Source of the DNA: a virus
Lineage: Duplodnaviria > Caudoviricetes
Reading direction: 5' to 3' (one strand)
DNA: 64,000 bases
IMG/VR virus record: IMGVR_UViG_3300025012_000029
Span: 96,001 to 160,000 of that record
The position numbers and the translations under genes are program-made. The notes under the pieces were generated by a model. That model made no database searches. It saw nothing but the letters and a program-made list of their open reading frames with translations, and had not been told where the DNA came from. How positions within the stretch are numbered: position 1 is the first letter of the stretch; every line of letters starts with the position of its first letter. This document shows, one piece after another, positions 38,884 to 63,326 of this stretch.

Positions 38884-38884
38884 A

Positions 38885-40087: not shown

Positions 40088-40088
40088 T

Positions 40089-43291: not shown

Positions 43292-44073
43292 CCAAACCTC
43301 CTTTTCCATACTGCTGATGAATCTTTCCAATTATTAATGTCCAGTCTCATTTCTCCCATGGTCCACGAAGGATTTCTATATCGAGATTGAAATAAAGGCT
43401 TATCGTGTATAATTTGAGCAGATTCGATCGGAGCATGATCAAGTTGCTCATGATCACAATTTAGCAAAGGAAAATCAGACATCTTGACATTGGCGCCTAG
43501 ATATTGAGCCCGAACTGCCATGTCAGCGTGTGAGTAAAAAGTTCCTTCATACAAGGAATCCCATCCTCCAAGTTCTTCGAAAAAAGTCCGATGTATTATA
43601 GCAACATTAAAGAGCCACCACTCTTTTGAAATAAATGGCGATGAAGTCCAATCTGATCCGTTTAATTTGAAATAATTATCTGGTTGAAGAGGCTTCTCTG
43701 TACCATTTTTTCCTTCATAATATTTTGTCACAACAACATTTTTATTATTGTCTCCCATAGAACGAAGTAGATCTATATTTTTATCTAATGAATCTGGAAG
43801 GAGAATTCCATCATCGGCAATCCAAGTCACTAATTCTCCTTCACACATAGAAGCAGCAATTTGAGAAGCTCTCACAGGAGAACCATAATCTTTGACATAT
43901 TTAACACAATTAATAACTTCTAATTGTGGAGTAAGAGGAAATGGACCACATATGATTAATTCAAAAGTTTTTTTTGTAGAAGCAACAATTGAATCATATA
44001 CGGCATCCCAATTTTGTTGACGAATGCCTGGAAGGACTATCGATATTTCTGGTTTAGACATTGCAACTCCCAA
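43288..44073 (-). CDS. GT-A (GT2-like) glycosyltransferase, paralog 2
   Basis: ISIVLPGIR, GSPVRA, WIADDG and FFEELGGWD. Confidence 0.75.
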   Translation of the reverse strand: MGVAMSKPEISIVLPGIRQQNWDAVYDSIVASTKKTFELIICGPFPLTPQLEVINCVKYVKDYGSPVRASQIAASMCEGELVTWIADDGILLPDSLDKNIDLLRSMGDNNKNVVVTKYYEGKNGTEKPLQPDNYFKLNGSDWTSSPFISKEWWLFNVAIIHRTFFEELGGWDSLYEGTFYSHADMAVRAQYLGANVKMSDFPLLNCDHEQLDHAPIESAQIIHDKPLFQSRYRNPSWTMGEMRLDINNWKDSSAVWKRRFG

Positions 44074-48296: not shown

Positions 48297-48844
48297 TATT
48301 TTACTGCCTCAATATTCAAACTTACTAATTTTGCTGTTCTACTAAATGGAGGTTCTAGTGTTGCTGCAGAGTAATCATCAACAAATGCGTGCGTCGTTGA
48401 AAATCTATCGTACATGCGAACTTCTTTAAATCCAACCGATCGCAAATCTCTTTCTAAACTATTAAAATCAAAAATATGATAATGAATGTCGAAATGATTT
48501 CTTTGACCACCCAATAAAAGTCCATAAATCTTTTCTATATTTCCAAATTTTGAATAATGCTCACATATGGCAAAAAAATCAGGTACAGACAAACGAAGTA
48601 TACCGCCAGGATTTAATGCTTTAAACCAATCTTTCAAAACATCCAAATAAGTTTTTTCTTGTCCTTGAAATGGTTTGCGAGGAAAATGTTCCAACAAATG
48701 AACTGCCAATATTAATTCTACATTTTGATATTTTTCACTTATTTTTGATACATCCATAACAACATCTGGATTACAAGATGAGTCTCCATCAATATTTATA
48801 AATCCGTGAATTTGTTTTTTCCCACAACCAAGATGCAGCTTCAT
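48296..48844 (-). CDS. SAM-dependent methyltransferase (type 11-like, glycan-locus type)
   Basis: MKLHLGCG...INID, VHLLEHF and LNPGGILRLSVPDF. Confidence 0.85.
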   Translation of the reverse strand: MKLHLGCGKKQIHGFINIDGDSSCNPDVVMDVSKISEKYQNVELILAVHLLEHFPRKPFQGQEKTYLDVLKDWFKALNPGGILRLSVPDFFAICEHYSKFGNIEKIYGLLLGGQRNHFDIHYHIFDFNSLERDLRSVGFKEVRMYDRFSTTHAFVDDYSAATLEPPFSRTAKLVSLNIEAVK

Positions 48845-49638
48845 TTTAACAAATCCTCATAATTTTTTGGAATAGTTTTAAATCGTCTTGTCCAAACAGA
48901 AGGTTGTTGCGTCCAATTGTTGATGTCTATTTTTATTCTAGTTTTTAGCGCATCTGGATTGGAATATATTTTTTGAAAAAGAGGAAGGTCGTGTTCATGG
49001 TGTGCTTTTTCGATAGCGTTATGATCATTTTGACCGTGATTACATGTGGTTACATCAATAGGAGAGTCATATAATTTTCCACCATCAGCTTGAACGCGCA
49101 GCATTATATCGTGTAAATTGAAGTTTTGATATTCAAATTCACAATCATAACCGCCAAGTTCTCTAAAATATTCTATATTTATTAAATGATGAAGAGAAAT
49201 TTTTGAATCTTGAGGAATGCCAGCAAGTCGTAAATCTCCATGATACTGAGCGGTCCAATATACAATTGGCATTGAAGCACCAGAATATCCAGCACCTTCC
49301 TTATATCGCATATTAACTACGTCTTTATGTCCACAAATTGAATTATAAAAATCAATTGATTCATCAATACTGTTTTCTAGCATCAAAGCATCATCAACAA
49401 CATGATAGAGAAGCCTTCCATTACATTCAAAAGAAGCAAGCTGGGCACATCTACTTGGAGATCCTAAATCTTTTATCATATTAACATTGTTTTTTGTTTT
49501 CAAATATTCAGTTAATTCAAACGGTCCACACATTACGAGTTCCCAAGAATATTTTTTACAAGATTGAACAATGGAATCATACATACGATCCCAATTTGGT
49601 ATACGAATCGCAGGACAAAAAATACTTAAATCAATCAT
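48841..49638 (-). CDS. GT-A (GT2-like) glycosyltransferase, paralog 3
   Basis: LSIFCPAIR, GSPSRC, HVVDDA and YFRELGGYD. Confidence 0.75.
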   Translation of the reverse strand: MIDLSIFCPAIRIPNWDRMYDSIVQSCKKYSWELVMCGPFELTEYLKTKNNVNMIKDLGSPSRCAQLASFECNGRLLYHVVDDALMLENSIDESIDFYNSICGHKDVVNMRYKEGAGYSGASMPIVYWTAQYHGDLRLAGIPQDSKISLHHLINIEYFRELGGYDCEFEYQNFNLHDIMLRVQADGGKLYDSPIDVTTCNHGQNDHNAIEKAHHEHDLPLFQKIYSNPDALKTRIKIDINNWTQQPSVWTRRFKTIPKNYEDLLK

Positions 49639-50590
49639 TCATTACTTTCTCTAAAACTGTTGTCCAGAATATTTTTGAATTATATTTTTCATTATATACT
49701 TTATAACCATTTTCCGCTATTTTAACTCTCTCTGCTTCATTGTTTAAGTAATAATGAATTTTCTGAACAAAATCATTTGGATCGGTAAATTCAACATATT
49801 CAATACCGGGCACAAATAATTCTTTTGTAGCATTATTCGCACTTTCCAAAAGCATTGAATGAGATGCTAAGATTTCATACACCCGTCCCTTACATTGATG
49901 AAATGAACCAGGAGACCATGAAAAATTAACCCCTATTTTGCTCCTACGAATATAAGATGCGTATTGTTCTGGAGAAAGTTTTTCTTCTCTTTGTCCTCCT
50001 CTAATAAGAATTGGAGCATTCGATTGAACGGCATGTTTAAGGAAAATTTGTCTATCTTGGTAGCGAGGACTTCCGATAAAACTAATAGGAATATCCTGAC
50101 CTTCTTGTTTGAAATATAATTTATCGTCTTGAGGCACCCACATTTGTTGAAAGTTAGATGGTAATTGCCTAGTTCTGTGGAAATCACTGTCAGCGCGATC
50201 CCAACCAATATGTAAATCTACCAAAGATCCCAAACCAAGAATTTGTGGATATCCCCAATCAATGCCAACGTCTGGCCACATTACAACATTTTTAATTCCC
50301 ATATTTTTAATAATTTCAAACGTTGGAGGATTGGGGTTGGCAGAAGACTTTCCCAACAAAGAAAAAATACATATATCTGGCTTTATTGAAGAACACACTT
50401 TTGGAAGAATAACATCCATATGTGTTTTATGAGAAACAACAGCCTCATCTAAATGTATAATGTCAAATATAATCTCAGGCATTGAATGTTTGAGAGAGCC
50501 AAATAAATTATGGTAATTATTTGTTAAACCCATATCTGGGCGTCCGTCAACCCATTTCTCAGTACAAAAAAGCAGCTTTGGTTTATTCAT
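49631..50590 (-). CDS. GT-B glycosyltransferase (CgeB / Glyco_trans_1_2-like)
   Basis: IPISFIGS, YIRRSKIGVNFS, KGRVYEILAS, LFVPGIEYVEF and IHYYLNNEAERVKIAENG. Confidence 0.8.
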   Translation of the reverse strand: MNKPKLLFCTEKWVDGRPDMGLTNNYHNLFGSLKHSMPEIIFDIIHLDEAVVSHKTHMDVILPKVCSSIKPDICIFSLLGKSSANPNPPTFEIIKNMGIKNVVMWPDVGIDWGYPQILGLGSLVDLHIGWDRADSDFHRTRQLPSNFQQMWVPQDDKLYFKQEGQDIPISFIGSPRYQDRQIFLKHAVQSNAPILIRGGQREEKLSPEQYASYIRRSKIGVNFSWSPGSFHQCKGRVYEILASHSMLLESANNATKELFVPGIEYVEFTDPNDFVQKIHYYLNNEAERVKIAENGYKVYNEKYNSKIFWTTVLEKVMND

Positions 50591-50623
50591 CGCTTTATCC
50601 TATATTTTTAATCCTGTCATCTT

Positions 50624-50845
50624 TTATTTTATTTTATCAAACCAACTTTTAGTTTCTTGTTCATAATACTTCGCTCTATAGTCCAAATCTAATATTAAAC
50701 ATCTTTGACGAGAGTGGGATTTAATCAAATGCCCCAATGGGTCTTCTTTGATAAATTCAAACTGTTCATCATCCAAGAATGAATGCAAATAGTCTTCTAT
50801 TCTTTGTATTTCTTTATTTTTCATTATAATAGTCCCCAAATTCAA
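50624..50845 (-). CDS. Small hypothetical protein
   Basis: 73 aa; its C-terminus ILDLDYRAKYYEQETKSW is repeated in 55353..55460. Confidence 0.5.
   Translation of the reverse strand: MNLGTIIMKNKEIQRIEDYLHSFLDDEQFEFIKEDPLGHLIKSHSRQRCLILDLDYRAKYYEQETKSWFDKIK
50642..50699. repeat. 58-bp direct repeat, copy 1 (copy 2 at 55380..55437)
   Basis: 57 of 58 positions identical on direct comparison; the copies are 4738 bp apart. Confidence 0.9.
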
Positions 50846-51353
50846 CTAAAATTGTTGATTTTCCATCTGTTCTTTCATAAGCATGTTTGTAGGCAGGAAA
50901 AATATCTTTTGGTTCATTTAATTCTATAATTTCTATATTGGTAAGCATTTCTCTAAATGCTGATGAAAAATTGCCAACATGTTGCGCTTGTGGATGAAGC
51001 GGACGTTCGGAACCCACACCAACTCGGATTATGACTTTTGGAATAAATTCATCATGCGAATATTGTTTGATTTTATCCAGATGGTTGACCAGTTGATCGG
51101 AAGCACAAATCAAAAAATTCCATCGAGGAAAAATGGAAATTGGTATAGTTCCGTTGATTGCCATCCCAATTGACATTCCAAGTTGCGTGTTCTCAATAAC
51201 AGGCATTTCAAGTCGTTTAGACAATGGAACATCTTTCAATGTCGCAAACATTGCTGTTCCTTCTTTTCCTACTGATTGTCCTAGAAAGAAAGTGTCTTGC
51301 TGCTCACCGAGCCAAGTCATTGTTTTTTTCATTTCTTCAAAGTACTTACCCAT
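50814..51353 (-). CDS. Minimal ThDP-enzyme beta subunit (E1-beta/transketolase pyrimidine-binding domain only)
   Basis: FFLGQSV, EMPVIENTQLGMSIGMA, DQLVNHLDK and PQAQH; 179 aa with no C-terminal domain. Confidence 0.8.
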   Translation of the reverse strand: MGKYFEEMKKTMTWLGEQQDTFFLGQSVGKEGTAMFATLKDVPLSKRLEMPVIENTQLGMSIGMAINGTIPISIFPRWNFLICASDQLVNHLDKIKQYSHDEFIPKVIIRVGVGSERPLHPQAQHVGNFSSAFREMLTNIEIIELNEPKDIFPAYKHAYERTDGKSTILVEFGDYYNEK

Positions 51354-52155
51354 CTATTTTATCTCCCTTTCTTATGTTTTCTATTGATTCTAATGGTCGG
51401 AGGTTTTCAAGTGTCCAACATTTCAAAAAGTTTTCATGTTCCATTGAATCATAAGGCAACTTGCTTTGAGGTATTATGTGATCTATTTGCCAAGTTTGTT
51501 TAGTGAAAGAAAGTCTACCATGGTTGTCCCAGTTCATCCACGGTTCCCATAAACTTTCTATGTGTTTTACTAACTCTTCTGGCGTATAAGGTAGTTTAGA
51601 AAAAATGGGAGCATTTTTGATGCCACCTTGAGATTTGAGGGTTTTGCGAATCGAGGAAGAAATAACACGATGACATCTAAAGCATGGATCATTTTTGATG
51701 CGTTGTTTGAACTTTTTCTTTCTTAGTTCTTTTGCTTTTGGAGATTGGCGATATTGTCTATCTCGTTTCCTATCTCGTTTCAATATTTTTTCTATATTAT
51801 TTTTTCGATATTGTTTACATTTTTCCAAAATATTTTCTTTATTATATAAATAATATTGTTTTTTCTGTTCTAAAATATTTTCTTTATTATATAAATAATA
51901 TTGTTTATATTTTTCCAAAATATTTTCTTTATTATATAAATAATATTGTTTTTTCTGTTCTAAAATATTTTCTTTATTATATAAATAATATTGTTTATAT
52001 TTTTCCAAAATAGTTTCTTTGTTATTTATAAAGAATTGTTTTTTATATCGTTTATTACAATTTTTACACCATGCATGCTTATTGTCTTTATTGTTTTTAT
52101 TATTACTAAACTCACTCAACTCTTTTTCAAGACCACATTTACTACATTTCTTCAT
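51346..52155 (-). CDS. Free-standing HNH homing endonuclease with internal tandem repeats
   Basis: CSKC...CKNC N-terminus; WQIDHIIPQS...ENLRPLESIENIRKG C-terminus closely matches that of 5351..6262. Confidence 0.85.
   Translation of the reverse strand: MKKCSKCGLEKELSEFSNNKNNKDNKHAWCKNCNKRYKKQFFINNKETILEKYKQYYLYNKENILEQKKQYYLYNKENILEKYKQYYLYNKENILEQKKQYYLYNKENILEKCKQYRKNNIEKILKRDRKRDRQYRQSPKAKELRKKKFKQRIKNDPCFRCHRVISSSIRKTLKSQGGIKNAPIFSKLPYTPEELVKHIESLWEPWMNWDNHGRLSFTKQTWQIDHIIPQSKLPYDSMEHENFLKCWTLENLRPLESIENIRKGDKIDG
51821..52012. repeat. Coding tandem repeat: 45-bp units in A-B-A-B order (exact 90-bp duplication)
   Basis: 51821-51910 is identical to 51911-52000; it encodes KQYYLYNKENILE(KY/QK) four times. 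Confidence 0.95.
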
Positions 52156-52157
52156 AA

Positions 52158-52811
52158 CTAAAATTGTATCCTTTTTCCGCCCGGGCCGGCGTGAGGATAA
52201 TCCAAGCGATATTTATAATACCACAAATATTTGCTCTTGTAAAACTCATTTTCTTCTATCATTCCTTGATTTATTTCATCTGGTTCGAATGGAAGTTTGT
52301 GAGTATTCCATACCTCCCTGGTGTCAGTGCAAACACTTTTACCATTGTCGCTTATCACAAATACAATAGGCAAAAAATGATTTTTCGCATAAGTATATGC
52401 TTCATAAAACCCACCACAAGTAGCAGACATTTCTCCTGCGAAACAATAAACTTTATTATTATCACCCCTTCTTTTTATATCTAACGCTATTCCTAGCGCA
52501 ATAGGAAAAATGCCTGCTACTATGGCAGATGTAAAAACTTTATGCTCTTTATTACACAACTCGATTGACCGTCCGTCAAGAATATCTTGTTTTGCTTTTT
52601 CAGGTGGAACACCTTTCAATAGCGTTTCTGCATGAAAACGCCAAGTTCCACAAACCCAATCTTCTTCGTTTATTTCTTCAAACATCTTTATCAATATCTC
52701 AAAATTATTTGACTGAAGATGTATGGGCGCTCTAATCATTTTGTTATTGAAACATTGAGCTATGTCTTCTTCAAAAGCAATTAACTGTTCGGCTGTCATT
52801 AAGTTTTTCAT
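52158..52811 (-). CDS. Minimal ThDP-enzyme alpha subunit (E1-alpha-like)
   Basis: IRAPIHL, SAIVAGIFPIALGIA and a variant ThDP motif GEM-X26-DN; 217 aa. Confidence 0.78.
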   Translation of the reverse strand: MKNLMTAEQLIAFEEDIAQCFNNKMIRAPIHLQSNNFEILIKMFEEINEEDWVCGTWRFHAETLLKGVPPEKAKQDILDGRSIELCNKEHKVFTSAIVAGIFPIALGIALDIKRRGDNNKVYCFAGEMSATCGGFYEAYTYAKNHFLPIVFVISDNGKSVCTDTREVWNTHKLPFEPDEINQGMIEENEFYKSKYLWYYKYRLDYPHAGPGGKRIQF

Positions 52812-54350
52812 TTAATCTCCAAGCAAACGCCTTTTTAGTTTTATCTGTGTTGATGCTTTAATGTTGTCGGTGCAAACTTTCCCAAACTTCTTTTCCATCA
52901 TTTGAAGGTAAACAGAATTTGTAAAATATCTAGTCCAACAATCATCACGGGCTTGCAGAATTTCTGCTGCTGATAATGTATCAGTTGGAAGATTTTGAGT
53001 GTAATATGAATGTTGTGAATAACCAGCATACCGATCAGGCAATATAACTTTATTTTTTCTTGCTTCTAAATATAATGGACTTCCAGGAAGTGCCATTGCC
53101 GAATAGATATTCATAAACTCTGTTAGATTATTCATCATAAACTCAACAGTATTTTGGATACTTTCTTTTGTGTCTTTTGGAAGTCCAAAAATGTAGTTTG
53201 CTCCTATATTTATTCCGGCATTTCTCATCATACTAAATAAGTTATCTATTTTTACTTCTTTGAATCCTCCCTTATGAACTTCTTTACGGAGAACTTGATT
53301 TGGATTCTCAACGCCTATTCCTAACCAGTTTATTCCTGCTTTTTTCATTCTATCAAGATATTCAGGCTTGCAAGTATCAACCCTAGAATAACACCAAATA
53401 TTGAAGTCATATTTTCGCTCTATTATCAAATCACATATTTTCAGAAAGTGCTTTGGATTATAGACAAAAAGTTCATCTGCTATTTTAACATTCTTTACGC
53501 CCATTTGCGCGATAATATCAAACTGTTTAATAATGAACTCTGGATCCCAATAGCGAAAAATATTGCTATCAGCGGCTGAAATATGAAGTGCATTGTCAGT
53601 CCTATTCAGAATATTTATCATACAATAGCTACATTTATATGGGCAACCAAGAGAAGTATAAAGAGATGCAAATGGAGTTTTTATTGTGTTATTTGACCAA
53701 CTGTGCCAGCCTGAGGTTTTAAAATATTTAATATTTGGCATTAAATCCCAAGCAATTCCTGGCAAATCTCTCGCGAGAAAATCTTTTGGAACAATTCTTT
53801 CTGGTTCGTTTATTATTGATAATCCTTCTTTTGTTTTAAAACCAATACCTTTTATTTTTAGAAGATCGTGATTATCGTCAACATTGCATTTCAATAAATT
53901 ATGAAGAGCATAAACACCTTCATTCGTGCACACAATATCAACGCAACCTTCATTAAGAGTTTCCCTAGGAACGGCTGAAACATGTGGACCTACAAAAATA
54001 ATTTTTGAATTAGGATTAAGCTCTTTGACTTTTTTTGCAGTTGCAATATTTCCTTCCATTGATTGAGTAGAAGCATTAGGATTGGCACCAAAAACAACAA
54101 AGCAAATTAAACGGGAATTTCTAGAAACAATTTCTTTTGCAGAATTGTTAGTTGTTAAATGTTCTGCTTCGCAATCTAATATTTGTGAAGAAAAACCTTT
54201 ACTTTTGCAACTGTTTGCTAACATACCAGCCCAAATATTAGGCTCTATTGCGCTATGTTCATTAGCAAGTTCTTGATAATTGATTTCCAAACTATTACTG
54301 TGCACAAAAAGTATGTCTAAATTTTTACTCATCTTTGATTTTCCTTCCAT
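52812..54350 (-). CDS. Cobalamin-binding radical SAM protein (class B methylase-like)
   Basis: N-terminal B12-binding-type domain (IIFVGPHVSAVP); TSLGCPYKCSYC (CxxxCxxC), ADELF, IGVE and NYIFGLP. Start may be the second Met (54332). Confidence 0.88.
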   Translation of the reverse strand: MEGKSKMSKNLDILFVHSNSLEINYQELANEHSAIEPNIWAGMLANSCKSKGFSSQILDCEAEHLTTNNSAKEIVSRNSRLICFVVFGANPNASTQSMEGNIATAKKVKELNPNSKIIFVGPHVSAVPRETLNEGCVDIVCTNEGVYALHNLLKCNVDDNHDLLKIKGIGFKTKEGLSIINEPERIVPKDFLARDLPGIAWDLMPNIKYFKTSGWHSWSNNTIKTPFASLYTSLGCPYKCSYCMINILNRTDNALHISAADSNIFRYWDPEFIIKQFDIIAQMGVKNVKIADELFVYNPKHFLKICDLIIERKYDFNIWCYSRVDTCKPEYLDRMKKAGINWLGIGVENPNQVLRKEVHKGGFKEVKIDNLFSMMRNAGINIGANYIFGLPKDTKESIQNTVEFMMNNLTEFMNIYSAMALPGSPLYLEARKNKVILPDRYAGYSQHSYYTQNLPTDTLSAAEILQARDDCWTRYFTNSVYLQMMEKKFGKVCTDNIKASTQIKLKRRLLGD

Positions 54351-54424
54351 GTTATATTTCTTACTATTCTAGAAACTGTATTTCTAGTAGTGCTCTGTCT
54401 TCTGTTTCAGACATACATTCTTTA

Positions 54425-54470
54425 GTGAACTACCCACCCACGCCAAAGCGATGAATGGGTTTTACGGCAC
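54425..54470 (-). mobile_element. Orphan IS200/IS605-type right end (subterminal hairpin plus TTCAC); omegaRNA-3'-end-like
   Basis: Minus strand reads ACCCATTCATCGC-TTTG-GCGTGGGTGGGT-AGTTCAC: a hairpin with two G.U pairs followed by a TCAC-type end. No tnpA or tnpB ORF in the window. Confidence 0.5.
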
Positions 54471-54543
54471 ATCCTATAAAGAATTCTAAAAACTCTTGCT
54501 GCATAAAACGTCCAATATCAATAATTTTATTTAGAGAAATTTT

Positions 54544-55143
54544 TTATTCTTCGAACATTATTGCATACCACGGTGGCATTTTCGTTTTTTTATTTTTTAA
54601 AAAATATTTCCATATTGTTGCAACAGTTCTGTGTGTTCCATCAACTATTTGATATTGTCCATCTTTACGTTTCATCCAAATACATCGATGATAATCTATA
54701 CTAGGATTAAAATCAATCATCCAATTCGTGTCTAAAGAAACGCTTGGTAATGTTTTCATTCTACGATTTACTTCACGCACTGAACCTTTATCTTTCACCA
54801 CTCCTTTGATTTTGACCTTCTTATTGTTAAGAAATGCTCGTTTGTATTCTTTAGCAAGTCTATACAGTGGTACGTTATTCCACACTGATAATACATTTAC
54901 AATGTCTTTTTTTTCCAATTTTACTAGCGCGAATGATTTATTTTCAATAAAATCAAATAACCATTTACGATTTTTAGTCTCTTTTAAAAAGATTTTTCGC
55001 AATTCGTTTTCTTTATTATCAATAAAATTGGGAGATTTAATAATAGACGCAGAAAGAAATTTCTCAACATCCTGACATGCATGATCTCCCTTCAAAATAC
55101 ACCATATTGGAATATTTTGATTAATGTAATTAATGATTTCCAT
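54544..55143 (-). CDS. Hypothetical protein with a ParB/sulfiredoxin-like motif
   Basis: GQYQIVDGTHRTVA matches the ParB-N DGxHR motif. Confidence 0.5.
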   Translation of the reverse strand: MEIINYINQNIPIWCILKGDHACQDVEKFLSASIIKSPNFIDNKENELRKIFLKETKNRKWLFDFIENKSFALVKLEKKDIVNVLSVWNNVPLYRLAKEYKRAFLNNKKVKIKGVVKDKGSVREVNRRMKTLPSVSLDTNWMIDFNPSIDYHRCIWMKRKDGQYQIVDGTHRTVATIWKYFLKNKKTKMPPWYAIMFEE

Positions 55144-55342
55144 ATTCTTTTTTTAAAAAAATATCTAAAGTGTCATATCCAAGAAGTTTTGATATCTGTT
55201 CAAGCTTGATTCTTGCCTGTTCGAGATGAACAAAATCGCCACACTCTATACATTGACAATAAACATTAAACCAATAATCAGCAGCTTTATCAATAGAAAA
55301 CGGAACATCCATATCCCAACCAATATCAATAATTTCGTGCAT
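55130..55342 (-). CDS. Small hypothetical protein
   Basis: 70 aa with CQCIEC; overlaps the downstream start codon. Confidence 0.45.
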   Translation of the reverse strand: MHEIIDIGWDMDVPFSIDKAADYWFNVYCQCIECGDFVHLEQARIKLEQISKLLGYDTLDIFLKKEYGNH

Positions 55343-55352
55343 ACCTAAGACC

Positions 55353-55460
55353 CTACTCGCCTTCCATCATTCTGTCAAGCCAACTTTTTGTTTCTTGTTC
55401 ATAATACTTCGCTCTATAGTCCAAATCTAATATTAAAATGATAAGTGCTTTTTTACTCAT
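55353..55460 (-). CDS. 35-aa mini-ORF carrying the second copy of the 58-bp repeat
   Basis: Hand translation MSKKALIILILDLDYRAKYYEQETKSWLDRMMEGE*; GGAAGGA upstream of the ATG. Confidence 0.45.
   Translation of the reverse strand: MSKKALIILILDLDYRAKYYEQETKSWLDRMMEGE
55380..55437. repeat. 58-bp direct repeat, copy 2
   Basis: Matches 50642..50699 with one mismatch. Confidence 0.9.
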
Positions 55461-55480
55461 TTCATTCCTTCCAAAAATAT

Positions 55481-55879
55481 CTAACCACATGAGAAACTTT
55501 CGCCGCATCCACAACAACGAGATGCGCTTTGGTTGATAAACTTAAACCCTGATCCCATTAATCCTTCTCTATAATCTAACACAACATTTTGAAGAAATAT
55601 AAAACTTTTTGGGTCTACTAAAACAGCTTTTCTGCTTTCATCTATCGGAATAACATGGTCGCCTTCTTCTAACGTTCCATCTTCAAGAAGATAACGATAT
55701 CCCGAACAACCTCCTGCTATCACTCCAACACGAATATATTGTCCTCTCTCTTCTTTTTCTTCAAGATATTTTACAAACTCTACCTTTGCCGCTTCTGTTA
55801 TTTGCAATGGTTGTTTTTCTTCAGAATTATCCATTTTTCTTCTTTCTTCTCCACCTATTATTTTTTCACTATAGCTCAA
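55481..55879 (-). CDS. iscA: A-type Fe-S cluster carrier (IscA/HesB family)
   Basis: IRVGVIAGGCSGYRY, LDYREGLMGSGFKFIN and CCGCGESF; the start may be 55834. Confidence 0.9.
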   Translation of the reverse strand: MSYSEKIIGGEERRKMDNSEEKQPLQITEAAKVEFVKYLEEKEERGQYIRVGVIAGGCSGYRYLLEDGTLEEGDHVIPIDESRKAVLVDPKSFIFLQNVVLDYREGLMGSGFKFINQSASRCCGCGESFSCG

Positions 55880-55880
55880 A

Positions 55881-56612
55881 TTATTCTACCTCAAATACGT
55901 GAGTTATCAAACACTCCCTATCTTCACACAAAATATGAATCCTAGATTTTTCACCGGAAGAAACGATATTTCCCCAATTGTTGCCATCTAAAGTAGATGA
56001 AATAACAGTCGTAGTTGTGTCTAGGTGTTCATAAATCAATTCCAATTCTTCATAATCATGAAAATTTGGATGTTGATTCAAAACTGGATTGCTTGAATAA
56101 TCCATACAGCTTCCTAAAGGAATATTATAAAAATCCTCATCTTGATGACTTAATCCTAGCGTATGTCCTATCTCTTGACACATAACAAGTCTTCTAAGTT
56201 CAGGTGTATTGTACTGCTGCATATTAAAATAAGTGTCATTCATTTTTACAATGCCTTGCGTAATATGTTCACCGCTAATCCAAATTTGGGCAATTCCAAG
56301 CCATCCTGTTTTTCCATACTTTGAATTACAAATCAAAATAGAACCAGCAGAAATCCTACAAGATCTTCCATTAAATAGCATTACAGTTGTATCCAATACG
56401 GAAGACAAACTCCAATCGTATGAGGCTTCATTTAAATATGGATCCCACGTAGTTGATACATTATCTCGTAAATTCAAAGTGAAAGGATTTGACGTTCTTG
56501 CCCAATGATATCCATTCCAAGAATGAAGTCCGGAAATAGAATTATTATAATCCGCTTCAAAATTACAAGACGACAAAAGCACTACAAACAAAAAACTAAA
56601 AATAAATTTCAT
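55881..56612 (-). CDS. Predicted lipoprotein, matrixin-like zinc metalloprotease
   Basis: Signal peptide with lipobox LSSC; CQEIGHTLGLSH zinc motif and SCMDY Met-turn. Confidence 0.7.
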   Translation of the reverse strand: MKFIFSFLFVVLLSSCNFEADYNNSISGLHSWNGYHWARTSNPFTLNLRDNVSTTWDPYLNEASYDWSLSSVLDTTVMLFNGRSCRISAGSILICNSKYGKTGWLGIAQIWISGEHITQGIVKMNDTYFNMQQYNTPELRRLVMCQEIGHTLGLSHQDEDFYNIPLGSCMDYSSNPVLNQHPNFHDYEELELIYEHLDTTTTVISSTLDGNNWGNIVSSGEKSRIHILCEDRECLITHVFEVE

Positions 56613-56647
56613 TTTCTCTCCTATTTTTATATTTTACAGAAACCATT

Positions 56648-57727
56648 TTATACTATTATTCCTTCAACGTATTTTGCTATCGATAAACAGCAAGTAAGCC
56701 CAGGTGATTCTATTCCAATCAAGTTTATCATATTGCGGAAACCATTGTCAATTTCATTCTTGATTATAAAATCTTTTTTATTGCCCTCATTACCAGAAAG
56801 TCTTGGACGAATTCCACTATAATCAGGAAATATATCTTCATCGCCTAATTCAATATATTCATTGATAGATGAAAGAAAACTTTCTTTAAATCTTTCATCA
56901 ATATTGTAATCAACATCGTATACTCTATAAGCGTTTGGTCCAAAAGAAACAGAACCATCTAAATTAATTCGAGTATGTATTCCCAAACTATCAAAACGAG
57001 GCAATGGATAAATTAAATGATTAAGATTTTTAATTTTATTTGTTTTATAATAATCGCCTTTCCAGAATTCCAATCTATATTGGTTTGGAAAAAGCAAATT
57101 TGCTATTTTATCTGCCCAGAGCCCAGCACAATTAATTAGAATTTTAGATGTTAAATGAAAATCATCTATTCCAACTCGAAAAGTGCCACCTTCATAGCGA
57201 TCGTATTGAATGCTCCGAACATTACATCCGAATCCAACATATACGTTGTTTCTCTGTCCTATCTGTCTATTCAATTCATACATTAAAGCATGAGAGTCGA
57301 TTATGCCAGTAGACGGCACCCATACAGCGGTATTATACTTTATAGTATCAGGAATATTATCTTTCGCTATTGTTAACCCTTCAATGCCATTTCTCTTTCC
57401 GTTGGAAAGGATATCAATTAAATAACCTTCCTCTCCTTTTTGGCATATGATAAATTTTCCGCATTTCTTATGATGAATATTGTGCTCATGAGCAAAATCA
57501 TAAAGCATTTTATTGCCTTCAATACACAATTTTGATTTTAGACTATTTGCTTGGTAATAAATACCAGAATGAATTACTTCACTATTTCTACTTGAAGTAT
57601 GTTGACCAAAACTGTTTTCTTTTTCAACAATGATTACTTGTTTCCCAGAACGAGATAAGCGTTCAGCTATAGCAAGACCAATTACTCCAGCACCAATAAC
57701 AATAATTTCGGCATCAATAGTTGGCAT
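56648..57727 (-). CDS. FAD-dependent oxidoreductase, L-2-hydroxyglutarate oxidase (LhgO)-like family
   Basis: IVIGAGVIG, TSSRNSEVIHSGIYY, STGIIDSH, INCAGLWAD, KGDYY, YSGIRP and GIESPGLT. Confidence 0.85.
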   Translation of the reverse strand: MPTIDAEIIVIGAGVIGLAIAERLSRSGKQVIIVEKENSFGQHTSSRNSEVIHSGIYYQANSLKSKLCIEGNKMLYDFAHEHNIHHKKCGKFIICQKGEEGYLIDILSNGKRNGIEGLTIAKDNIPDTIKYNTAVWVPSTGIIDSHALMYELNRQIGQRNNVYVGFGCNVRSIQYDRYEGGTFRVGIDDFHLTSKILINCAGLWADKIANLLFPNQYRLEFWKGDYYKTNKIKNLNHLIYPLPRFDSLGIHTRINLDGSVSFGPNAYRVYDVDYNIDERFKESFLSSINEYIELGDEDIFPDYSGIRPRLSGNEGNKKDFIIKNEIDNGFRNMINLIGIESPGLTCCLSIAKYVEGIIV

Positions 57728-58658
57728 AGATTATAAAATCATCATTTAACATTTCGTACACAGTTTTGAGTTGTATAATGCCTTCATCTAGATCAGTACG
57801 GCAACTAAATCCTTTATCATAGAATTTTTGACTACTAATAATATAATTCCGACAATCAGGATCCTTTGTTATTTGTGCTTCAATAATTTCCAATGGAATA
57901 TGTTCAGAAATTTTTTGACAAAGCTGAAGTTTACTCATATTGAGTTTATCATTTCCAACGTTAAATACTTCATTTTTACACTTATCCCAATTATTTATGG
58001 CGAATATAAAAGCATTACACGCATCATCAATATGTATATAATTACGCATGTATGAGCCTTCATATACAATAAGAACTTTTTCTCTCATTGCCTTTAACAC
58101 AAGATTGTTCACAAGCAAATCAGTTCGCATCCTTGACGATGGACCAAACACTGTAGCAAGTCTCATCGAACAATGGTTCTCGACTTGCCGAATTGCTTCT
58201 TCGCCAGCGCATTTTGATTTTCCATAAACAGATATCGGATTAAGTGGATCTTTTTCTGTTATCGTTGAAGTCCCATCAGTAGTTCCATAACCAGAATTCG
58301 AATTTGGAACCAAAAGTAATTGATCTTTTGATTTGTTATTGGCAAGGAATTCATTAGCTCCGTGATGAATGTCCCACGCTTCTTGTGGACGTTTATCACA
58401 TAATGGAGCGCCGACTAAAGCAGCGAGAGAAATAATAACATCATGATTTTTTAATAAAAAACCAAGCAACTCTTTATCTCGTACATCACCTTTAACAAAA
58501 TTGAATCTATCATCATTTGCGTACTGAAGAAGAGAAGTTTTATCGTAAAGAAGTGAGTCTAGTGCTGTAACTTCACCGAATGGATAGTCCTGTTCTAAAA
58601 TTTTGCCAACTAGATTAGAACCAATATATCCCGCTGCTCCGGATATAAGATATCTCAT
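57714..58658 (-). CDS. NAD-dependent epimerase/dehydratase (extended SDR)
   Basis: ISGAAGYIGS, LAALVGAPLC, YGKSK and RLATVFG. Confidence 0.85.
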   Translation of the reverse strand: MRYLISGAAGYIGSNLVGKILEQDYPFGEVTALDSLLYDKTSLLQYANDDRFNFVKGDVRDKELLGFLLKNHDVIISLAALVGAPLCDKRPQEAWDIHHGANEFLANNKSKDQLLLVPNSNSGYGTTDGTSTITEKDPLNPISVYGKSKCAGEEAIRQVENHCSMRLATVFGPSSRMRTDLLVNNLVLKAMREKVLIVYEGSYMRNYIHIDDACNAFIFAINNWDKCKNEVFNVGNDKLNMSKLQLCQKISEHIPLEIIEAQITKDPDCRNYIISSQKFYDKGFSCRTDLDEGIIQLKTVYEMLNDDFIIYANY

Positions 58659-58661
58659 ATT

Positions 58662-59084
58662 TTATTCCTCACTATTCCAGCTTGGTTCCCAATCAGAATA
58701 TTCTGATGCCAAGCAATCAACTTTATGATCAATTCTTCCTTTGACTTGATATTCAATATTATTTTTAGCTCTATTTCTTACTCCATTCAAAGAATGTGAC
58801 AATAAAAGCTTACTTCCGTCTTTATTGCCTTTTCTTGCTTCACTTTCATTATACCAGATATGATTGTTATAGTGCGCAAGGATAATGATATTACGAATGA
58901 TGTCAGCATTGAGCGCTACTGGAATTTCATCTAAAAATAGATCAATATCATACATTATGTCCTTTATTTCTTGCGCGTACGCTGCTTTATGTTCAGGAAT
59001 TCTAACTTCTTTCAACTGATCTATCGACATCCTATCTATCAAGTCTGATAGCGATGGCAAATATCTCCTTTTCTTCTCTGTCAT
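58662..59084 (-). CDS. Hypothetical helical protein
   Basis: Likely start is ATG 59084 (GAGGAG Shine-Dalgarno); YLPSLSDLIDRMSIDQLK. Confidence 0.55.
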   Translation of the reverse strand: MTEKKRRYLPSLSDLIDRMSIDQLKEVRIPEHKAAYAQEIKDIMYDIDLFLDEIPVALNADIIRNIIILAHYNNHIWYNESEARKGNKDGSKLLLSHSLNGVRNRAKNNIEYQVKGRIDHKVDCLASEYSDWEPSWNSEE

Positions 59085-59158
59085 TTTTTCTCCTCGATTC
59101 CCATTACAACTACAACACACATATCCCATATGAATAGAACAATAATTGTGTAACATTT

Positions 59159-60829
59159 TTATTCAACACTGTCAAAGTATTCTTTAAAGGTATTATAATT
59201 TGACTCTCCTATAACATCTTTAAATTCATGGAAAACATCACGTTCTTCGCGCCTTCGACGAAGCATTTTGTCTGGATCGGAACTTGTGCTTAATCCGTCT
59301 GGATTATAATAATAAAGTCCCAATATTTTATTAACCTTCTTAAAAAGAGAACCAGCTCTAACAGCTCGCAACCATAACTCCCAATCTCCAGCGTGTTTGA
59401 GTTTTTCATCCCATAGTCCCGCTTTATCGTGAATAGATTTACGATATAGAGGTAGGGGTCCGGGAAGACATTTGATCATATTTTCTCTGGAAAAATCCAT
59501 TCGAGAGTGTTCATACAATCTTCCTTTTGAAGAATTTTGTTCAACTGTTTCATTAGGTTTTGTCGTTTGAAGACAATCCCCATATACCAAATCGATTTCT
59601 GGATTCAACATTAAGTGTTTTGCTAGTGTTTCTAAATGATCGTTCGCCATCCTATCATCAGCCAACACACATGCTATAAATTCCCCGGACGCAAGTTTCG
59701 TTGCTTCATTAAATGCTTCCATTGGAGTTATTTGGGTGTTTTTTCTAATATATTTAATATTGTCTGTATGCACTTGTATATATTTCGAAATTATTGAGAC
59801 TTCATCATCTGGAGAATTGGCATCGATAATGATTAATTCAGAATCGTCTGATATTGTTTGTGCTACAAACGAATCCATAAAACCTTTAATATGTTCCTTT
59901 GCTTTATAGATTGTCGTAATAACTGAAACTTTGGGAAGTTTTACTGAATTAAATTTTTCCACTTCTTTATCTTTGATTACTTTCTCAAACAAATCAATTG
60001 TTTTTTCTTTTCTTCCGGCAATATATTCTAATAACTCTTCGCCCTTTAATTTGAAAAAATCTTCTGATGCGCATCCTAAAGCTTTGTTTGTTATTAATTT
60101 ACAACCTAGAATTCTAGCTTCAATCGCGACCCTACAAAATGTTTCAATCCATGTAGGAAAAAACACCAACGTTTCTGTTTTGGCAAGTTCATCAAAAAAT
60201 CTATCTTGATCACAAAATGGAATTAATTCATAATTTATTTTATTCTTTTTACAATATTGTATTGCTTCGGGCATGCCTTTATTTTTATTATTGGATTGGA
60301 TAATACCAACTTTTCTATTCTTCTTTTTTCCAATATTGTTGCGAAGGACTTCAACTGCTTCATCAGACCATATATTACATCCAATATTGACAATATTTTT
60401 GAGAAGAAGATTTTTCTCCATTATTTCAGCATGCATCTTGCTTTGACAAAAAACTGCTTTCGCTGATTTAAAAAATTGTTTATTCTGTATTTGATCTTCA
60501 GGAACAACAAGATTTGGAAATAATGCTGGGTTATTTGATTTGAATGCCTTCCAATCATTTTCAACTATCAAATAATTTATTTTTTCATTAATCAGTGTTT
60601 GTTTACTATCTTCTGGTAATAGCATAAAATTTGATATTATCCAAAAACAATCTTTATTGTCTTTTAGCAAGTTAGAAGTACATTCAACACTTTTAAGTTT
60701 TTCTAATTCGAATCCACGTTTCTGCAGAGACTTTATTTGTTCTTCTGCGCACAACTCGGCACCGCCACAGATTTCATTAGCAAAATAGTCAGCAACATAA
60801 ACAACTTTTTTAGTATTAATCATACGCAA
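59159..60829 (-). CDS. Two-domain glycosyltransferase (GT-B-like fused to GT2)
   Basis: N-terminal GGAELC...ETFCRVAIEARILGC; C-terminal KVSVITT, LIIIDANS, LADD and GDWELWLR. Confidence 0.8.
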   Translation of the reverse strand: MRMINTKKVVYVADYFANEICGGAELCAEEQIKSLQKRGFELEKLKSVECTSNLLKDNKDCFWIISNFMLLPEDSKQTLINEKINYLIVENDWKAFKSNNPALFPNLVVPEDQIQNKQFFKSAKAVFCQSKMHAEIMEKNLLLKNIVNIGCNIWSDEAVEVLRNNIGKKKNRKVGIIQSNNKNKGMPEAIQYCKKNKINYELIPFCDQDRFFDELAKTETLVFFPTWIETFCRVAIEARILGCKLITNKALGCASEDFFKLKGEELLEYIAGRKEKTIDLFEKVIKDKEVEKFNSVKLPKVSVITTIYKAKEHIKGFMDSFVAQTISDDSELIIIDANSPDDEVSIISKYIQVHTDNIKYIRKNTQITPMEAFNEATKLASGEFIACVLADDRMANDHLETLAKHLMLNPEIDLVYGDCLQTTKPNETVEQNSSKGRLYEHSRMDFSRENMIKCLPGPLPLYRKSIHDKAGLWDEKLKHAGDWELWLRAVRAGSLFKKVNKILGLYYYNPDGLSTSSDPDKMLRRRREERDVFHEFKDVIGESNYNTFKEYFDSVE

Positions 60830-63326
60830 TAACTTCTTTCAATAAGGGATTAACTTCTTTTTCTTCTTTCAGAAAATCCGCAATATCTACAATTGGATAA
60901 TATTCATCTACACAATCGGCGAAATGTGTCAACATCTTATCGGAATCAAATTTGTCTAACACATATTCTTGAAGTTTGTTTGCTCGCGATTTACAAGAAC
61001 CATAATTTTTGTAAACTTCCCTCATTTGTTGTTTAGCATCAATTTCTCTAGGAAAGCACCATTGTGCATCAGGAATAATTATTCCATCCCAAACTGCTTC
61101 TGGTTGAACATTTTTAATATCGTACGCTACGTTAGAAATCATACATGTATTTTTGATTTTATTCTTTTTCTTATCTTTTATTGGCATATAAATAAAATCA
61201 TTTTGTCCACTCCATGCGGGGGCAACTATCGGCAATCCATTATATGCTGATTCAAACATTGGAAGACAGTTGTGCACCATAAAATTTTCAGTACAATAAG
61301 TTTCGTCTTCTTCAACAGAAAGGTTGAATACTTTACCAGCGTGCTGAAATTTAGTAATATTTTTTATTCTCAGCAAAAAACAATCTTCTTTTTCTTTAGT
61401 TCTTCCAGATTGTTTTTCATTAAACGAATCTGCCAACTGCAGTGTGTCGTATATTACAGTATTAGAAGTATGTTTATTTAACATGGTTACAAATTTATTA
61501 ATACTTTCTTTTTTTCCAATAACTAACGAATGAATTTCACTCTTGTAATTCCATTTTTCTTTAATAATTCCTTCTCGGGTGCACATTTTATAGGAACATA
61601 ATATTCCTTGTTCTAATAATAATATTCTAATTTGTCTCAATAATGTTTTATTGACAAGTTGTACCTCTATAGATGGATTCTTGTAATTTTTAGTATTAAT
61701 ATATCCATCTCCTTCAAATAAAGCAGTAATCATTCCCTCTTTAAATTCATTAGGAAACGAGAAAACGCAATCACTAATAACTTTATTTTTTGATTTATTT
61801 CCCAATAAAGATTTGAAAAATAAAGCCACAATTTTATTGTGAAATACAATAACAGAACATTTTTTATTTTTTCTTTTTTCTATCCTAAAATGTTCTATCC
61901 CGAATATATCTTTCATGCAATTGATAATTTCTTTTCCAAAAGAATCAATTTCTTTATCATGAAGAGAAAAAGCAATAATTCTATCATCAGATACACATCC
62001 TTCGGCTAAAAACCATCCACACAATCTACCAAATTTTTTATCAATATTGATATTATTTTTTATTTTTAGGCCAAGTTTATTTGAATGCATATAAAAAATA
62101 TCTTCATCGTTTAGTACTAAATTTTTTTCATTTTTTACGTGTTCAAATATATCAATATTGTTAATGATATTTTCTTTTTTTGACATTTTTGGCAAAACCA
62201 AATAGTCATTTTGTTTTAATTCATCGCTTCTTTTCCACAAGAATTCTTTATTTTTATTATCATAAATGTAAACATTGTGATTCGGCGTTAAAACAATTGG
62301 TTCCATAGGTACTGCACAATATGGAACAATTTTAATCATCTCGCCAGAATATTCACGAGACATAGGAGTTATAACTTTTCGATATCGATTTCTATGAGTC
62401 AATACTAAATCTCCAGATTTAATATCGATCAATTTCTTAAGTCCTTTGTCTGTAATAATTGGAGTATAGTCCAATCCGCAGAAACCTTCTCCGTGCGTTA
62501 AACTAATGAAAGCTTTAATTTTTGGATGTCTATAAAGAAAAGTCATTTCTTCCTCTCTTAAATCTCCATGTAAAAGATGTATAGCACATTTTCGTTCTTT
62601 TCCATTAAATTGAGATAAAACATCATTAACTCTATTTTGAGTCATTTCTCTATCCATTAATGATTGATTAACGGAATTGACTTTCAATATTAATCCAACT
62701 TCTTTATTCATAAACTCTTCAACGAACCATTTAATTGTATTTTCAACATTCTTTCGTGGTCCCCATTGAGCTACAGTTAGAAAATTAAAATCATACTTAA
62801 AATCAACATTAATTGGTTTTGGTTCTACAATTCTAACCGGATAAGGAACAACTTCCATTGGCATCTCAAGTTTGGCAACAAATTGTCTTCCTGTAACATT
62901 ATCTGTCGCTGGAAACTGCGCATTGGTAAAACCAAATTTAGAATGATTAGATGTTAATAGAATTTTGTTTACATTGAAACATCCCTGAAACCATTGAGGT
63001 GAAATTTTAGTTGTTTCAATTCCAGCAGTATATCCAATATTAATTGGAGCCATTTTTTTCCACTCATTTGGGATACAAACTTGTAATGATATATCAAACT
63101 GTCCACCTTGTTGTTGATAAACAAGAGTTTTTTGAAGAATTTGATCAATCCAGCGGCGCTCTTCTGTATCTTCCCATGTCCAACTTGTTCTACCCCAAGG
63201 GGTATTAATGAGATATATGTCAAATCGTTCTGGAAACTTTCGAAGAGCGGAAAGAGCAAAACGACTCTGAACACCATAACCGCTTTGGCTCAAAAAAGGT
63301 CCCCTCATTATGATTTTTTTAGTCAT
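60816..63326 (-). CDS. GT4-family glycosyltransferase interrupted by an intein
   Basis: SGYG and FLTVAQWGPRKN; after intein removal the extein reads HGEGF/CLPMFE, giving the EX7E motif. Confidence 0.85.
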   Translation of the reverse strand: MTKKIIMRGPFLSQSGYGVQSRFALSALRKFPERFDIYLINTPWGRTSWTWEDTEERRWIDQILQKTLVYQQQGGQFDISLQVCIPNEWKKMAPINIGYTAGIETTKISPQWFQGCFNVNKILLTSNHSKFGFTNAQFPATDNVTGRQFVAKLEMPMEVVPYPVRIVEPKPINVDFKYDFNFLTVAQWGPRKNVENTIKWFVEEFMNKEVGLILKVNSVNQSLMDREMTQNRVNDVLSQFNGKERKCAIHLLHGDLREEEMTFLYRHPKIKAFISLTHGEGFCGLDYTPIITDKGLKKLIDIKSGDLVLTHRNRYRKVITPMSREYSGEMIKIVPYCAVPMEPIVLTPNHNVYIYDNKNKEFLWKRSDELKQNDYLVLPKMSKKENIINNIDIFEHVKNEKNLVLNDEDIFYMHSNKLGLKIKNNINIDKKFGRLCGWFLAEGCVSDDRIIAFSLHDKEIDSFGKEIINCMKDIFGIEHFRIEKRKNKKCSVIVFHNKIVALFFKSLLGNKSKNKVISDCVFSFPNEFKEGMITALFEGDGYINTKNYKNPSIEVQLVNKTLLRQIRILLLEQGILCSYKMCTREGIIKEKWNYKSEIHSLVIGKKESINKFVTMLNKHTSNTVIYDTLQLADSFNEKQSGRTKEKEDCFLLRIKNITKFQHAGKVFNLSVEEDETYCTENFMVHNCLPMFESAYNGLPIVAPAWSGQNDFIYMPIKDKKKNKIKNTCMISNVAYDIKNVQPEAVWDGIIIPDAQWCFPREIDAKQQMREVYKNYGSCKSRANKLQEYVLDKFDSDKMLTHFADCVDEYYPIVDIADFLKEEKEVNPLLKEVIAYD
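61269..62480 (-). mobile_element. Intein (404 aa) with a LAGLIDADG homing endonuclease
   Basis: Starts CGLDYTPII, ends VFNLSVEEDETYCTENFMVHN, +1 residue is Cys; DOD motifs LCGWFLAEG and ITALFEGDG. Confidence 0.92.

Follow-up and report, generated by a model that had tools for sequence, protein, structure and literature searches.

We analyzed a 64-kb window of the 201-kb genome of an uncultured phage (IMG/VR record IMGVR_UViG_3300025012_000029); window coordinates are used unless a contig is named. Within a glycan island of ~25 kb, the window encodes the alpha and beta subunits of a minimal E1-like thiamin diphosphate (ThDP) enzyme together with a radical S-adenosylmethionine enzyme (rSAM) and an extended short-chain dehydrogenase/reductase (SDR). 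This stretch probably, though far from certainly, forms the core of a nucleotide-sugar branching module, and on balance we favour a ThDP-dependent route that would yield an acyl-branched deoxy sugar.

Open reading frames (ORFs) of the window were typed using Pfam and NCBIfam profiles and, for some, PHROG. A preliminary description, made from the letters alone, had named alpha, beta, rSAM, SDR, an IscA-like carrier and an FAD oxidoreductase. All of these were recovered intact with Pfam and NCBIfam at the positions it gave, on the minus strand, which carries every gene between 46 and 63 kb. The same description had overlooked an HNH ORF between alpha and beta, a metzincin-like lipoprotein, and the ORFs orf70 and orf199. 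The core genes are as follows.

57714-58658, minus strand: extended SDR, 314 aa (Pfam Epimerase, E = 2e-30)
52812-54350, minus strand: rSAM, 512 aa, with an N-terminal B12-binding-like domain (PF02310 and PF04055); abuts alpha
52158-52811, minus strand: minimal E1-like ThDP alpha subunit, 217 aa, diphosphate-binding (PP) domain only (E1_dh profile positions 5-172 of 300)
50814-51353, minus strand: minimal E1-like ThDP beta subunit, 179 aa, pyrimidine-binding (Pyr) domain only (Transket_pyr match covering 21-170)

Alpha carries the motif G126-E127-M128 ... D155-N156, with 26 residues between the two halves. This GEM-X26-DN signature had been singled out as a variant. The motif is present, but it is less odd than was held: G-[ED]-M is the rule throughout the family alignment, and GEM...DN aligns residue for residue with GEG...NN of human branched-chain 2-oxo acid dehydrogenase (BCKDH) E1-alpha, such that the Mg ligands E127 and N156 line up with those of the human protein. 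Based on this alignment and the family-wide pattern, the glutamate is a normal metal ligand. The AlphaFold2 model of alpha (predicted local distance difference test score, pLDDT, 87) overlaid on the PP core of human pyruvate dehydrogenase (PDH) E1-alpha at 1.7 Å over 164 columns, and covered only ~40% of the human subunit. Beta matched the PDH E1-beta model NF006667 (E = 2e-9), and its Glu54 aligned with the ThDP-activating catalytic glutamate of E1-beta structures, a residue kept in at least 95% of 47 homologues. According to Pfam, beta has no Transketolase_C, that is, no E2-binding C-terminal domain. The parts absent relative to a dehydrogenase E1, the C-terminal half of alpha and the C-terminal domain of beta, both serve the dehydrogenase complex. 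The earlier remark that the window holds no E2 or E3 stood for E2 (PF00198) and was extended to the whole 201-kb genome, in which no E2 was found. Nor did that genome yield a second E1_dh or acetolactate synthase (ALS)-type ThDP enzyme (PF02775). Alpha and beta are a real, compact E1-type ThDP pair made up of PP and Pyr domains, with the cofactor-binding residues kept and without an E2/E3 partner. Overall, the pair is best read as a putative minimal E1-type (αKADH2-like) carboligase in a scheme of the yersiniose/erwiniose type. A phosphonate pathway, comprising a Ppd-type decarboxylase and a PhpK-like rSAM, was also considered and was rejected because alpha and beta are E1-type rather than Ppd-type; no phosphoenolpyruvate mutase turned up among the genes typed in the window or related loci.

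A protein search with alpha returned 1498 relatives, most of 198-225 aa; identity within the family is 50-68% across phyla, with members in cyanobacteria, Bacteroidota, and uncultured phages. Pattern scans of a bacterial genome collection and of viral contigs yielded alpha/beta relatives in 207 stretches of the former and 214 of the latter. Bacterial carriers included Nitrospira, Verrucomicrobiota, Burkholderiales, Planctomycetia, Acidobacteriota, the candidate phyla radiation (CPR), and Pelagibacteraceae. Neighbours were counted in 51 bacterial loci with at least 6 kb on both sides and in 60 viral loci with good flanks. Beta accompanied alpha in all 51 and all 60, with a gap of 3-16 nt in most loci. 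An SDR homologue lay within 4-5 kb of alpha in 39 bacterial and 52 viral loci, and rSAM was near alpha in 35 of the bacterial loci. Alpha and beta are thus invariably found together, as a rule alongside members of this rSAM family and this SDR family. The preliminary description had named failure of the genes to co-occur elsewhere as grounds for abandoning its proposal; they do co-occur.

Every one of the >100 loci examined was a glycan locus. This bears on a more conventional reading, in which the phage would carry the pair as an auxiliary metabolic gene serving central carbon metabolism, with the activity of an ordinary 2-oxo acid decarboxylase or dehydrogenase E1. The best family matches of the pair are PDH and BCKDH E1 subunits, but the genome holds no E2/E3, beta and alpha lack the C-terminal portions noted above, and the genomic setting is uniformly one of glycan synthesis. 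We regard this explanation as barely credible.

The commonest bacterial neighbour was a gene annotated 'DegT', found within 4 kb of alpha in 46 of the 51 loci. For this gene and for its counterpart in the window (38885-40087), the best PDB match was ColD (E ~1e-50). ColD is the pyridoxamine 5′-phosphate (PMP)-dependent GDP-4-keto-6-deoxymannose 3-dehydratase, and ColD-type enzymes make NDP-3,6-dideoxy-4-keto sugars, the acceptor class of YerE. The catalytic position was read by alignment to His188 of ColD, for which entry 3b8x, an H188N mutant, served as a marker. Histidine rather than the Schiff-base lysine occupies it in 55 of 55 family members, as it does in the window copy. An aminotransferase that makes an amino sugar was therefore rejected as the identity of 'DegT', the lysine hallmark being replaced. 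The window copy is contiguous with two further genes, the three spanning 38885-42034, 11 kb downstream of alpha/beta:

41066-42034, minus strand: ColC/Fcl-like SDR (Fcl model, 189.7 bits)
40089-41069, minus strand: GDP-mannose 4,6-dehydratase, GMD (GDP_Man_Dehyd, 351 bits)
38885-40087, minus strand: ColD-like PMP 3-dehydratase (ColD 2gms, E = 2e-47; His at the catalytic position)

Together, the GMD, ColD-like and ColC-like genes would supply a GDP-3,6-dideoxy-4-keto acceptor. Clustering of ORFs in bacteria defined an eight-gene cassette: rSAM, an HddA-like GHMP kinase, an Fcl-like SDR, alpha, beta, the 'DegT'/ColD-like gene, an HddC-like nucleotidyltransferase, and an SDR. This cassette often adjoins Wzm/Wzt O-antigen exporters, and its cultured carriers include Massilia sp., Herbaspirillum lusitanum, and Spirulina sp. 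CCY15215. The module had been described as self-contained; that view does not hold, as it depends on the GMD, ColD-like and ColC-like genes 11 kb away and is part of the larger cassette in bacteria. In the window, the region 37379-42034 comprises the colitose-type trio followed by an HldA-like kinase, an HldC-like adenylyltransferase and a capsule-type phosphatase. A phage with both the trio and heptose-type genes may activate both a hexose and a heptose.

The rSAM protein scored 46 bits with PF02310 (cut-off 32.1) and 62.9 bits with PF04055, giving the class B architecture of an N-terminal B12-binding-type domain and a CX3CX2C core. The three cysteines of the core, C236, C240 and C243, are invariant in 32 homologues and are the sole invariant cysteines. 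The best NCBIfam match, HpnJ, reached 139.6 bits, one quarter of the cut-off score. The nearest PDB structure, in sequence as well as in fold (AlphaFold model, pLDDT 88), was AprD4 (6fd2), followed by TsrM, MgmA, CysS, OxsB, and TokK; the E-values for AprD4 and the cobalamin enzymes, 8e-21 and 2e-20, respectively, are within one order of magnitude. AprD4 is a 1,2-diol dehydratase that acts on an aminoglycoside sugar; it has the same architecture and is not a methyltransferase. The assignment of rSAM as a class B methylase in the preliminary description therefore agrees with its domain and motif, but is only one of two live readings, the top structure being AprD4. On this evidence, rSAM may C-methylate the branch or its donor, or it may prepare or modify the sugar by an AprD4-like dehydration or rearrangement.

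The viral contigs were also scanned from the rSAM side, yielding 50 loci with at least 4 kb on both sides. A ThDP enzyme accompanied rSAM in 49 of these, and its type varied: the short alpha/beta pair in 15, a longer E1-like pair (alpha ~240-275 aa, beta ~300 aa) in 22, a single-chain ALS/YerE type with TPP_enzyme_N/M/C domains in 12, and none in 1. The frame of the phage island was constant, in the order glycosyltransferase family 2 (GT2), orf164, SDR, rSAM, and ThDP enzyme. This positional swap is independent support for a carboligase role, because, among analogous enzymes that acyl-branch keto sugars, E1-type pairs and YerE-type enzymes are the two best established (PMC4425429, PMC12247030). 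The preliminary analogy with YerE-type enzymes has thus gained two independent supports, the ColD-type neighbour and the occurrence of YerE/ALS-type enzymes in the same slot beside rSAM.

The constancy of this association admits a bolder proposal, which we put forward tentatively: an rSAM with a B12-like domain could be the obligate partner of ThDP carboligases of three architectures, the two together forming an undescribed branch of acyl-branched-sugar biosynthesis. In that event, rSAM might extend or methylate the side chain installed by the ThDP enzyme, or might create the carbonyl that is attacked. Some loci hold two ThDP enzymes. In the Pelagibacterales (SAR11) contigs L009-L011, an ALS-type enzyme and a longer E1-like pair flank the same rSAM, and in L211 and L255 a long and a short alpha/beta pair occur together. 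Given such loci, one pathway may include two ThDP steps.

The resemblance to AprD4 would allow an alternative to branching, namely chain extension. In this scheme, rSAM would dehydrate a vicinal diol, such as C6-C7 of a nucleotide-heptose, and so generate a deoxy-aldehyde or ketone. At the carbonyl thus formed, the ThDP pair would add a two-carbon unit to give a higher-carbon (C8/C9) deoxy sugar, and SDR would reduce the product. Consistent with this, AprD4 is the top PDB match in both sequence and fold, rSAM and a ThDP enzyme are nearly always neighbours, and heptose-activation genes are nearby (HddA/HddC-like in bacteria, HldA/HldC-like plus a phosphatase in the window). The family also occurs in Pelagibacterales, which are not known to have cobalamin enzymes. 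Nevertheless, the margin of AprD4 over the cobalamin methylases is tiny, the best NCBIfam match is HpnJ rather than AprD4, and the constant ColD-type neighbour is left unexplained. Moreover, approximately one third of the bacterial loci hold alpha/beta without rSAM. We consider chain extension unlikely.

In the branching route that we favour, the alpha2beta2 enzyme would decarboxylate a 2-oxo acid, either pyruvate or a more elaborate one, and the ThDP-bound acyl anion would be added to the C-4 ketone of a GDP-3,6-dideoxy-4-keto sugar produced by the phage GMD and ColD-like enzymes. The product would bear a tertiary-alcohol acyl branch, as in the yersiniose, erwiniose and eurekanate routes. SDR would then reduce the ketone of the branch and rSAM would contribute one further radical step, either C-methylation of the branch or donor or AprD4-like dehydration. 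IscA would load the [4Fe-4S] cluster of rSAM, the FAD oxidase would make or trim the donor, and the sugar would be transferred to a host or virion glycan by glycosyltransferases of the island.

Several points weigh against this route. The ColD-like gene of the window lies 11 kb from alpha/beta rather than adjacent to it, and the cassette also encodes an Fcl/ColC-like 4-reductase, which would be a competitor for the 4-keto intermediate. No known branched-sugar route offers a precedent for the role of rSAM. The pair is about one third shorter than pairs of the AviB1/Pau11 type, and the minimal family is described here from sequence and structural models. In addition, the window alpha has changes at 14 of the 83 positions whose conservation in bacteria reaches at least 95%, as compared with 5-6 for its nearest relatives; its specificity may therefore differ. 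Finally, many of the viral loci are close relatives, so the counts do not represent independent events. A more general caveat is that IMG/VR contigs may include cellular fragments.

The remaining genes of the module region, most of which lie between SDR and rSAM, are less widely shared.

56648-57727, minus strand: FAD-dependent oxidoreductase, LhgO/glycerol-3-phosphate-oxidase-like, 359 aa (Pfam DAO, E = 1e-52)
55881-56612, minus strand: putative secreted lipoprotein, metzincin-like, 243 aa (HExxHxxGxxH motif and lipobox)
55481-55879, minus strand: A-type Fe-S carrier, IscA/ErpA-like, 132 aa (TIGR00049, 85.2 bits; cut-off 58.8 bits)
55130-55342, minus strand: orf70, between IscA and rSAM
54544-55143, minus strand: orf199, between IscA and rSAM
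51346-52155, minus strand: free-standing HNH endonuclease ORF, 269 aa (phrog_1035 endonuclease VII, E = 3e-16)

The SDR itself has a YxxxK motif and no dehydratase-type acid pair, which points to a ketoreductase with a YerF/Pau7-like role rather than a 4,6-dehydratase. The best NCBIfam match of the FAD oxidoreductase was L-2-hydroxyglutarate oxidase (NF008726), at 206.8 bits, below the 299-bit cut-off; only its membership of the DAO superfamily is secure, and its profile score falls short of an LhgO equivalog. It may convert a 2-hydroxy acid to a 2-oxo acid donor, or it may oxidize the branch. Homologues with 44-49% identity stand beside SDR in ~6 phage loci (L156, L157, L159, L169, L172, and L193), and the gene is absent from the nearest relatives, L005 and L007. 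IscA has the three cluster-ligand cysteines of an A-type carrier, one in GGCSGY and those of a C-terminal CGCG. It was found in none of the 51 bacterial loci and in 3 of the 60 viral loci, namely L005 and L007 (~50% identity) and L138. As rSAM is the sole radical SAM gene of the 201-kb genome, it is plausible that IscA serves as its cluster donor. The preliminary description had counted IscA and the FAD oxidase as parts of the module; on these distributions, they are lineage-specific accessories rather than core parts. No homologue of the metzincin-like lipoprotein, orf70 or orf199 was found in the 51 bacterial and 60 viral loci. The lipoprotein, which has only weak Met-zincin/serralysin matches, is probably an unrelated insert amid the sugar genes. 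Orf70 and orf199 had no Pfam, NCBIfam or PHROG match and are inserts specific to this phage. The DGTHRT motif of orf199 resembles ParB/sulfiredoxin-type nuclease domains, a likeness to which no profile match lends support.

Enzymes that could make a donor also occur at the junction of rSAM and the ThDP enzyme. PanB, the ketopantoate hydroxymethyltransferase, lies above its NCBIfam cut-off between rSAM and a YerE/ALS-type enzyme in L175 (9517-10455) and L191 (9520-10482), and in L008 the interval between rSAM and alpha is occupied by a class II aldolase. Further downstream in L175 is another radical SAM gene, of the SPASM type. The PanB and aldolase genes fit a published pattern in which neighbouring enzymes such as aldolases make the 2-oxo acid donor (PMC9306805). 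The same genes might be taken to mean that rSAM, the ThDP enzyme and variable partners (PanB, aldolase, and FAD oxidase) build an acyl or alkyl substituent from 2-oxo acids that is attached through O or N, with no C-C bond to the ring. The clustering of donor-type enzymes with the rSAM/ThDP unit, the resemblance of the FAD enzyme to 2-hydroxy acid oxidases, and the free exchange of ThDP enzyme types are all in keeping with such a substituent. However, no acyltransferase or ligase is conserved in the cassette, and the conserved neighbour makes a keto sugar, not an amino sugar, as judged from the His in place of Lys in all 55 sequences. We find an O- or N-linked substituent quite improbable.

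The region is mosaic. The HNH ORF fills the junction of alpha and beta exactly, and within it a 45-nt (15-aa) unit is repeated in tandem as six overlapping copies (51726-52085). Its HNH domain is 59% identical to one in L005 that is sited between IscA and rSAM, and in L007 an ORF related to it at the N-terminus lies between alpha and beta; the nuclease thus moves around within the cassette. The notion that alpha and beta are one fused gene split by this ORF was rejected because the close family natively consists of two genes, 3-16 nt apart, in >100 loci. A fused homologue of ~400 aa in cyanophages S-SM2 and P-TIM68 (phrog_34187) is distant (33-36% identity) and has a GDG motif. That the junction is a hotspot for homing endonucleases proved only partly true: inserts occur there in ~10 of 84 viral loci, and most are unrelated, non-nuclease ORFs. 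Relative to L005, alpha and beta are 66% and 77% identical, respectively, and rSAM only 47%. The window rSAM comes closer, at 56-64% identity, to the rSAM subfamily found with long alpha/beta pairs in SAR11 and other phages, and looks like a xenologous replacement inside a syntenic island. In contig L255, which encodes the nearest alpha (P0006), a long alpha and beta come first, then rSAM, then a short alpha and beta. Two direct copies of a 69-nt repeat (94% identical), at 50631-50699 and 55369-55437, bracket the block from orf70 to beta and encode the C-termini of small ORFs at 50624-50845 and 55353-55517. This repeat may be a recombination scar of cassette exchange.

These features raise the question of whether the window holds a decaying mosaic in which the pair is nonfunctional in this phage. 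Invasion of the alpha-beta junction by the HNH ORF, an rSAM subfamily that differs from that of the nearest relatives, the 14 deviations at conserved positions of alpha, and the repeat flanking the block would all be expected of such a mosaic. Yet all of the ORFs are intact and tightly packed or overlapping, and the cofactor ligands and the catalytic glutamate are kept: the rSAM swap, the repeat, the HNH ORF and the changes in alpha broke no reading frame and removed no cofactor ligand. Many of the alpha deviations are shared with P0006, and their recurrence in this independent relative suggests a sub-lineage rather than decay. We view decay as very unlikely.

Other genes of the island, and searches at the nucleotide level, were also recorded. 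Orf164 (58662-59156), just upstream of SDR, is kept at 45-61% identity in 39 of the 60 viral loci and in none of the bacterial ones; a language-model search placed it near DUF4254/DUF6165 clusters, which serves as a lead only. Members of a family of ~260 aa without a Pfam domain ('orf265') occur as three to four paralogues per island in this and related phages, including 48841-49638, 43288-44073, and 42219-42977 of the window. An 836-aa ORF (60816-63326) with Hint/intein-splicing and LAGLIDADG domains is an intein-bearing gene that adjoins the GT2 gene. An Rfam search of 50000-59500, with E up to 1, detected no group I intron and no thiamin pyrophosphate or cobalamin riboswitch. A nucleotide search with the module stretch and a structural-protein search against a phage collection returned no match.

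Sugar branching by ThDP enzymes has two known settings: a few lipopolysaccharide (LPS) pathways, where the enzyme is of the YerE type, and actinomycete antibiotic clusters, where it is a full-size E1-type pair. To these, the present module would add a third form, a minimal one, which is common among environmental Gram-negative bacteria (SAR11 and Nitrospira, both very abundant, among them) and in islands for host recognition in large phages of marine and fresh waters. It would also bring in a radical SAM step for which the published scheme makes no provision. We found no description in the open-access literature of the minimal family, of its link to ColD, or of a radical SAM partner in ThDP sugar branching. 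A survey of pelagimyophages reported 'radical SAM cassettes' and LPS genes in a host-recognition cluster, with no functional analysis (PMC7029224). If the branching route is correct, branched sugars as yet unknown could be predicted from sequence, tertiary-alcohol biocatalysis would gain a compact carboligase of two subunits (~400 aa in total), and part of the output of phage glycan islands would be explained. Were rSAM in fact an obligate partner of the carboligases, there would be a new class of surface sugar in SAR11, Nitrospira, cyanobacteria, Verrucomicrobia and their large phages, and the phages would use it to remodel host or virion glycans.

The module shares features with several characterized systems. 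As in the colitose pathway, genes of the GMD, ColD and ColC types are contiguous and the ColD-like protein keeps the catalytic histidine. In contrast to that pathway, which has no ThDP or radical SAM step, the 4-keto intermediate is proposed to be diverted to branching. As in AprD4/AprD3 and the class B methylases (TsrM, TokK, CysS, and GenK), rSAM combines a Rossmann-like N-terminal domain with a radical SAM barrel and a single CX3CX2C cluster, and, like AprD4/AprD3, it stands beside an NAD(P) reductase-type gene in a sugar context. Its identity to these proteins is only 14-18%.

In yersiniose synthesis, YerE adds a pyruvate-derived unit, and ErwE and MMAR_2332 add longer chains derived from 2-oxo acids to the same class of acceptor (PMC9306805). 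The route proposed here follows the scheme of these enzymes for yersiniose, erwiniose and caryophyllose: 4,6-dehydratase, PMP 3-dehydratase, ThDP-dependent carboligation at C-4, and NAD(P)H-dependent reduction. Donor-making enzymes are likewise encoded beside the ThDP enzyme (PMC9306805). The differences are that YerE is a single chain with TPP_enzyme_N/M/C domains, of which the window has none, and that alpha and beta are not members of the YerE family. In addition, known YerE-type routes use CDP-glucose and E1/E3, whereas the window series is of the GDP-manno/ColD type, and the published scheme includes no radical SAM enzyme.

Although the preliminary description had looked to YerE, the E1-type branching enzymes AviB1/B2, Pau11/12 and KbDH-alpha/beta are closer analogues. 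E1-type pairs are established sugar-branching enzymes; the αKADH2 set comprises AviB1/AviB2 (avilamycin), Pau11/Pau12 (paulomycin), AlmDI/DII (aldgamycin), and KbDH-alpha/beta (kibdelomycin), for which transfer of a C2 unit from pyruvate to a keto sugar has been either proposed or shown, the branch then being reduced, methylated or transaminated (PMC4425429, PMC4753412, PMC12247030). Like these, the window pair consists of two genes, alpha (PP) and beta (Pyr), in a deoxysugar cluster without E2/E3. A 2-oxo acid dehydrogenase E1, in contrast, has an E2 partner and an E2-binding domain in beta, neither of which applies to the pair. The Mg/diphosphate motif and the activating glutamate of the E1-type enzymes are present, and keto-deoxy-sugar genes lie alongside, in 46 of the 51 bacterial loci and as GMD and the ColD-like gene in the window. 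The full-length architecture is not: Pau11 and Pau12 are 325 and 345 aa, respectively (PMC4425429), versus 217 and 179 aa for alpha and beta, and beta has no C-terminal domain. The comparison with AviB1/Pau11 is drawn from these published sizes and domains. Finally, the known E1-type pairs come from actinomycete antibiotic clusters, whereas the minimal family occurs in Gram-negative, cyanobacterial and phage surface-glycan loci, where it is coupled to rSAM.

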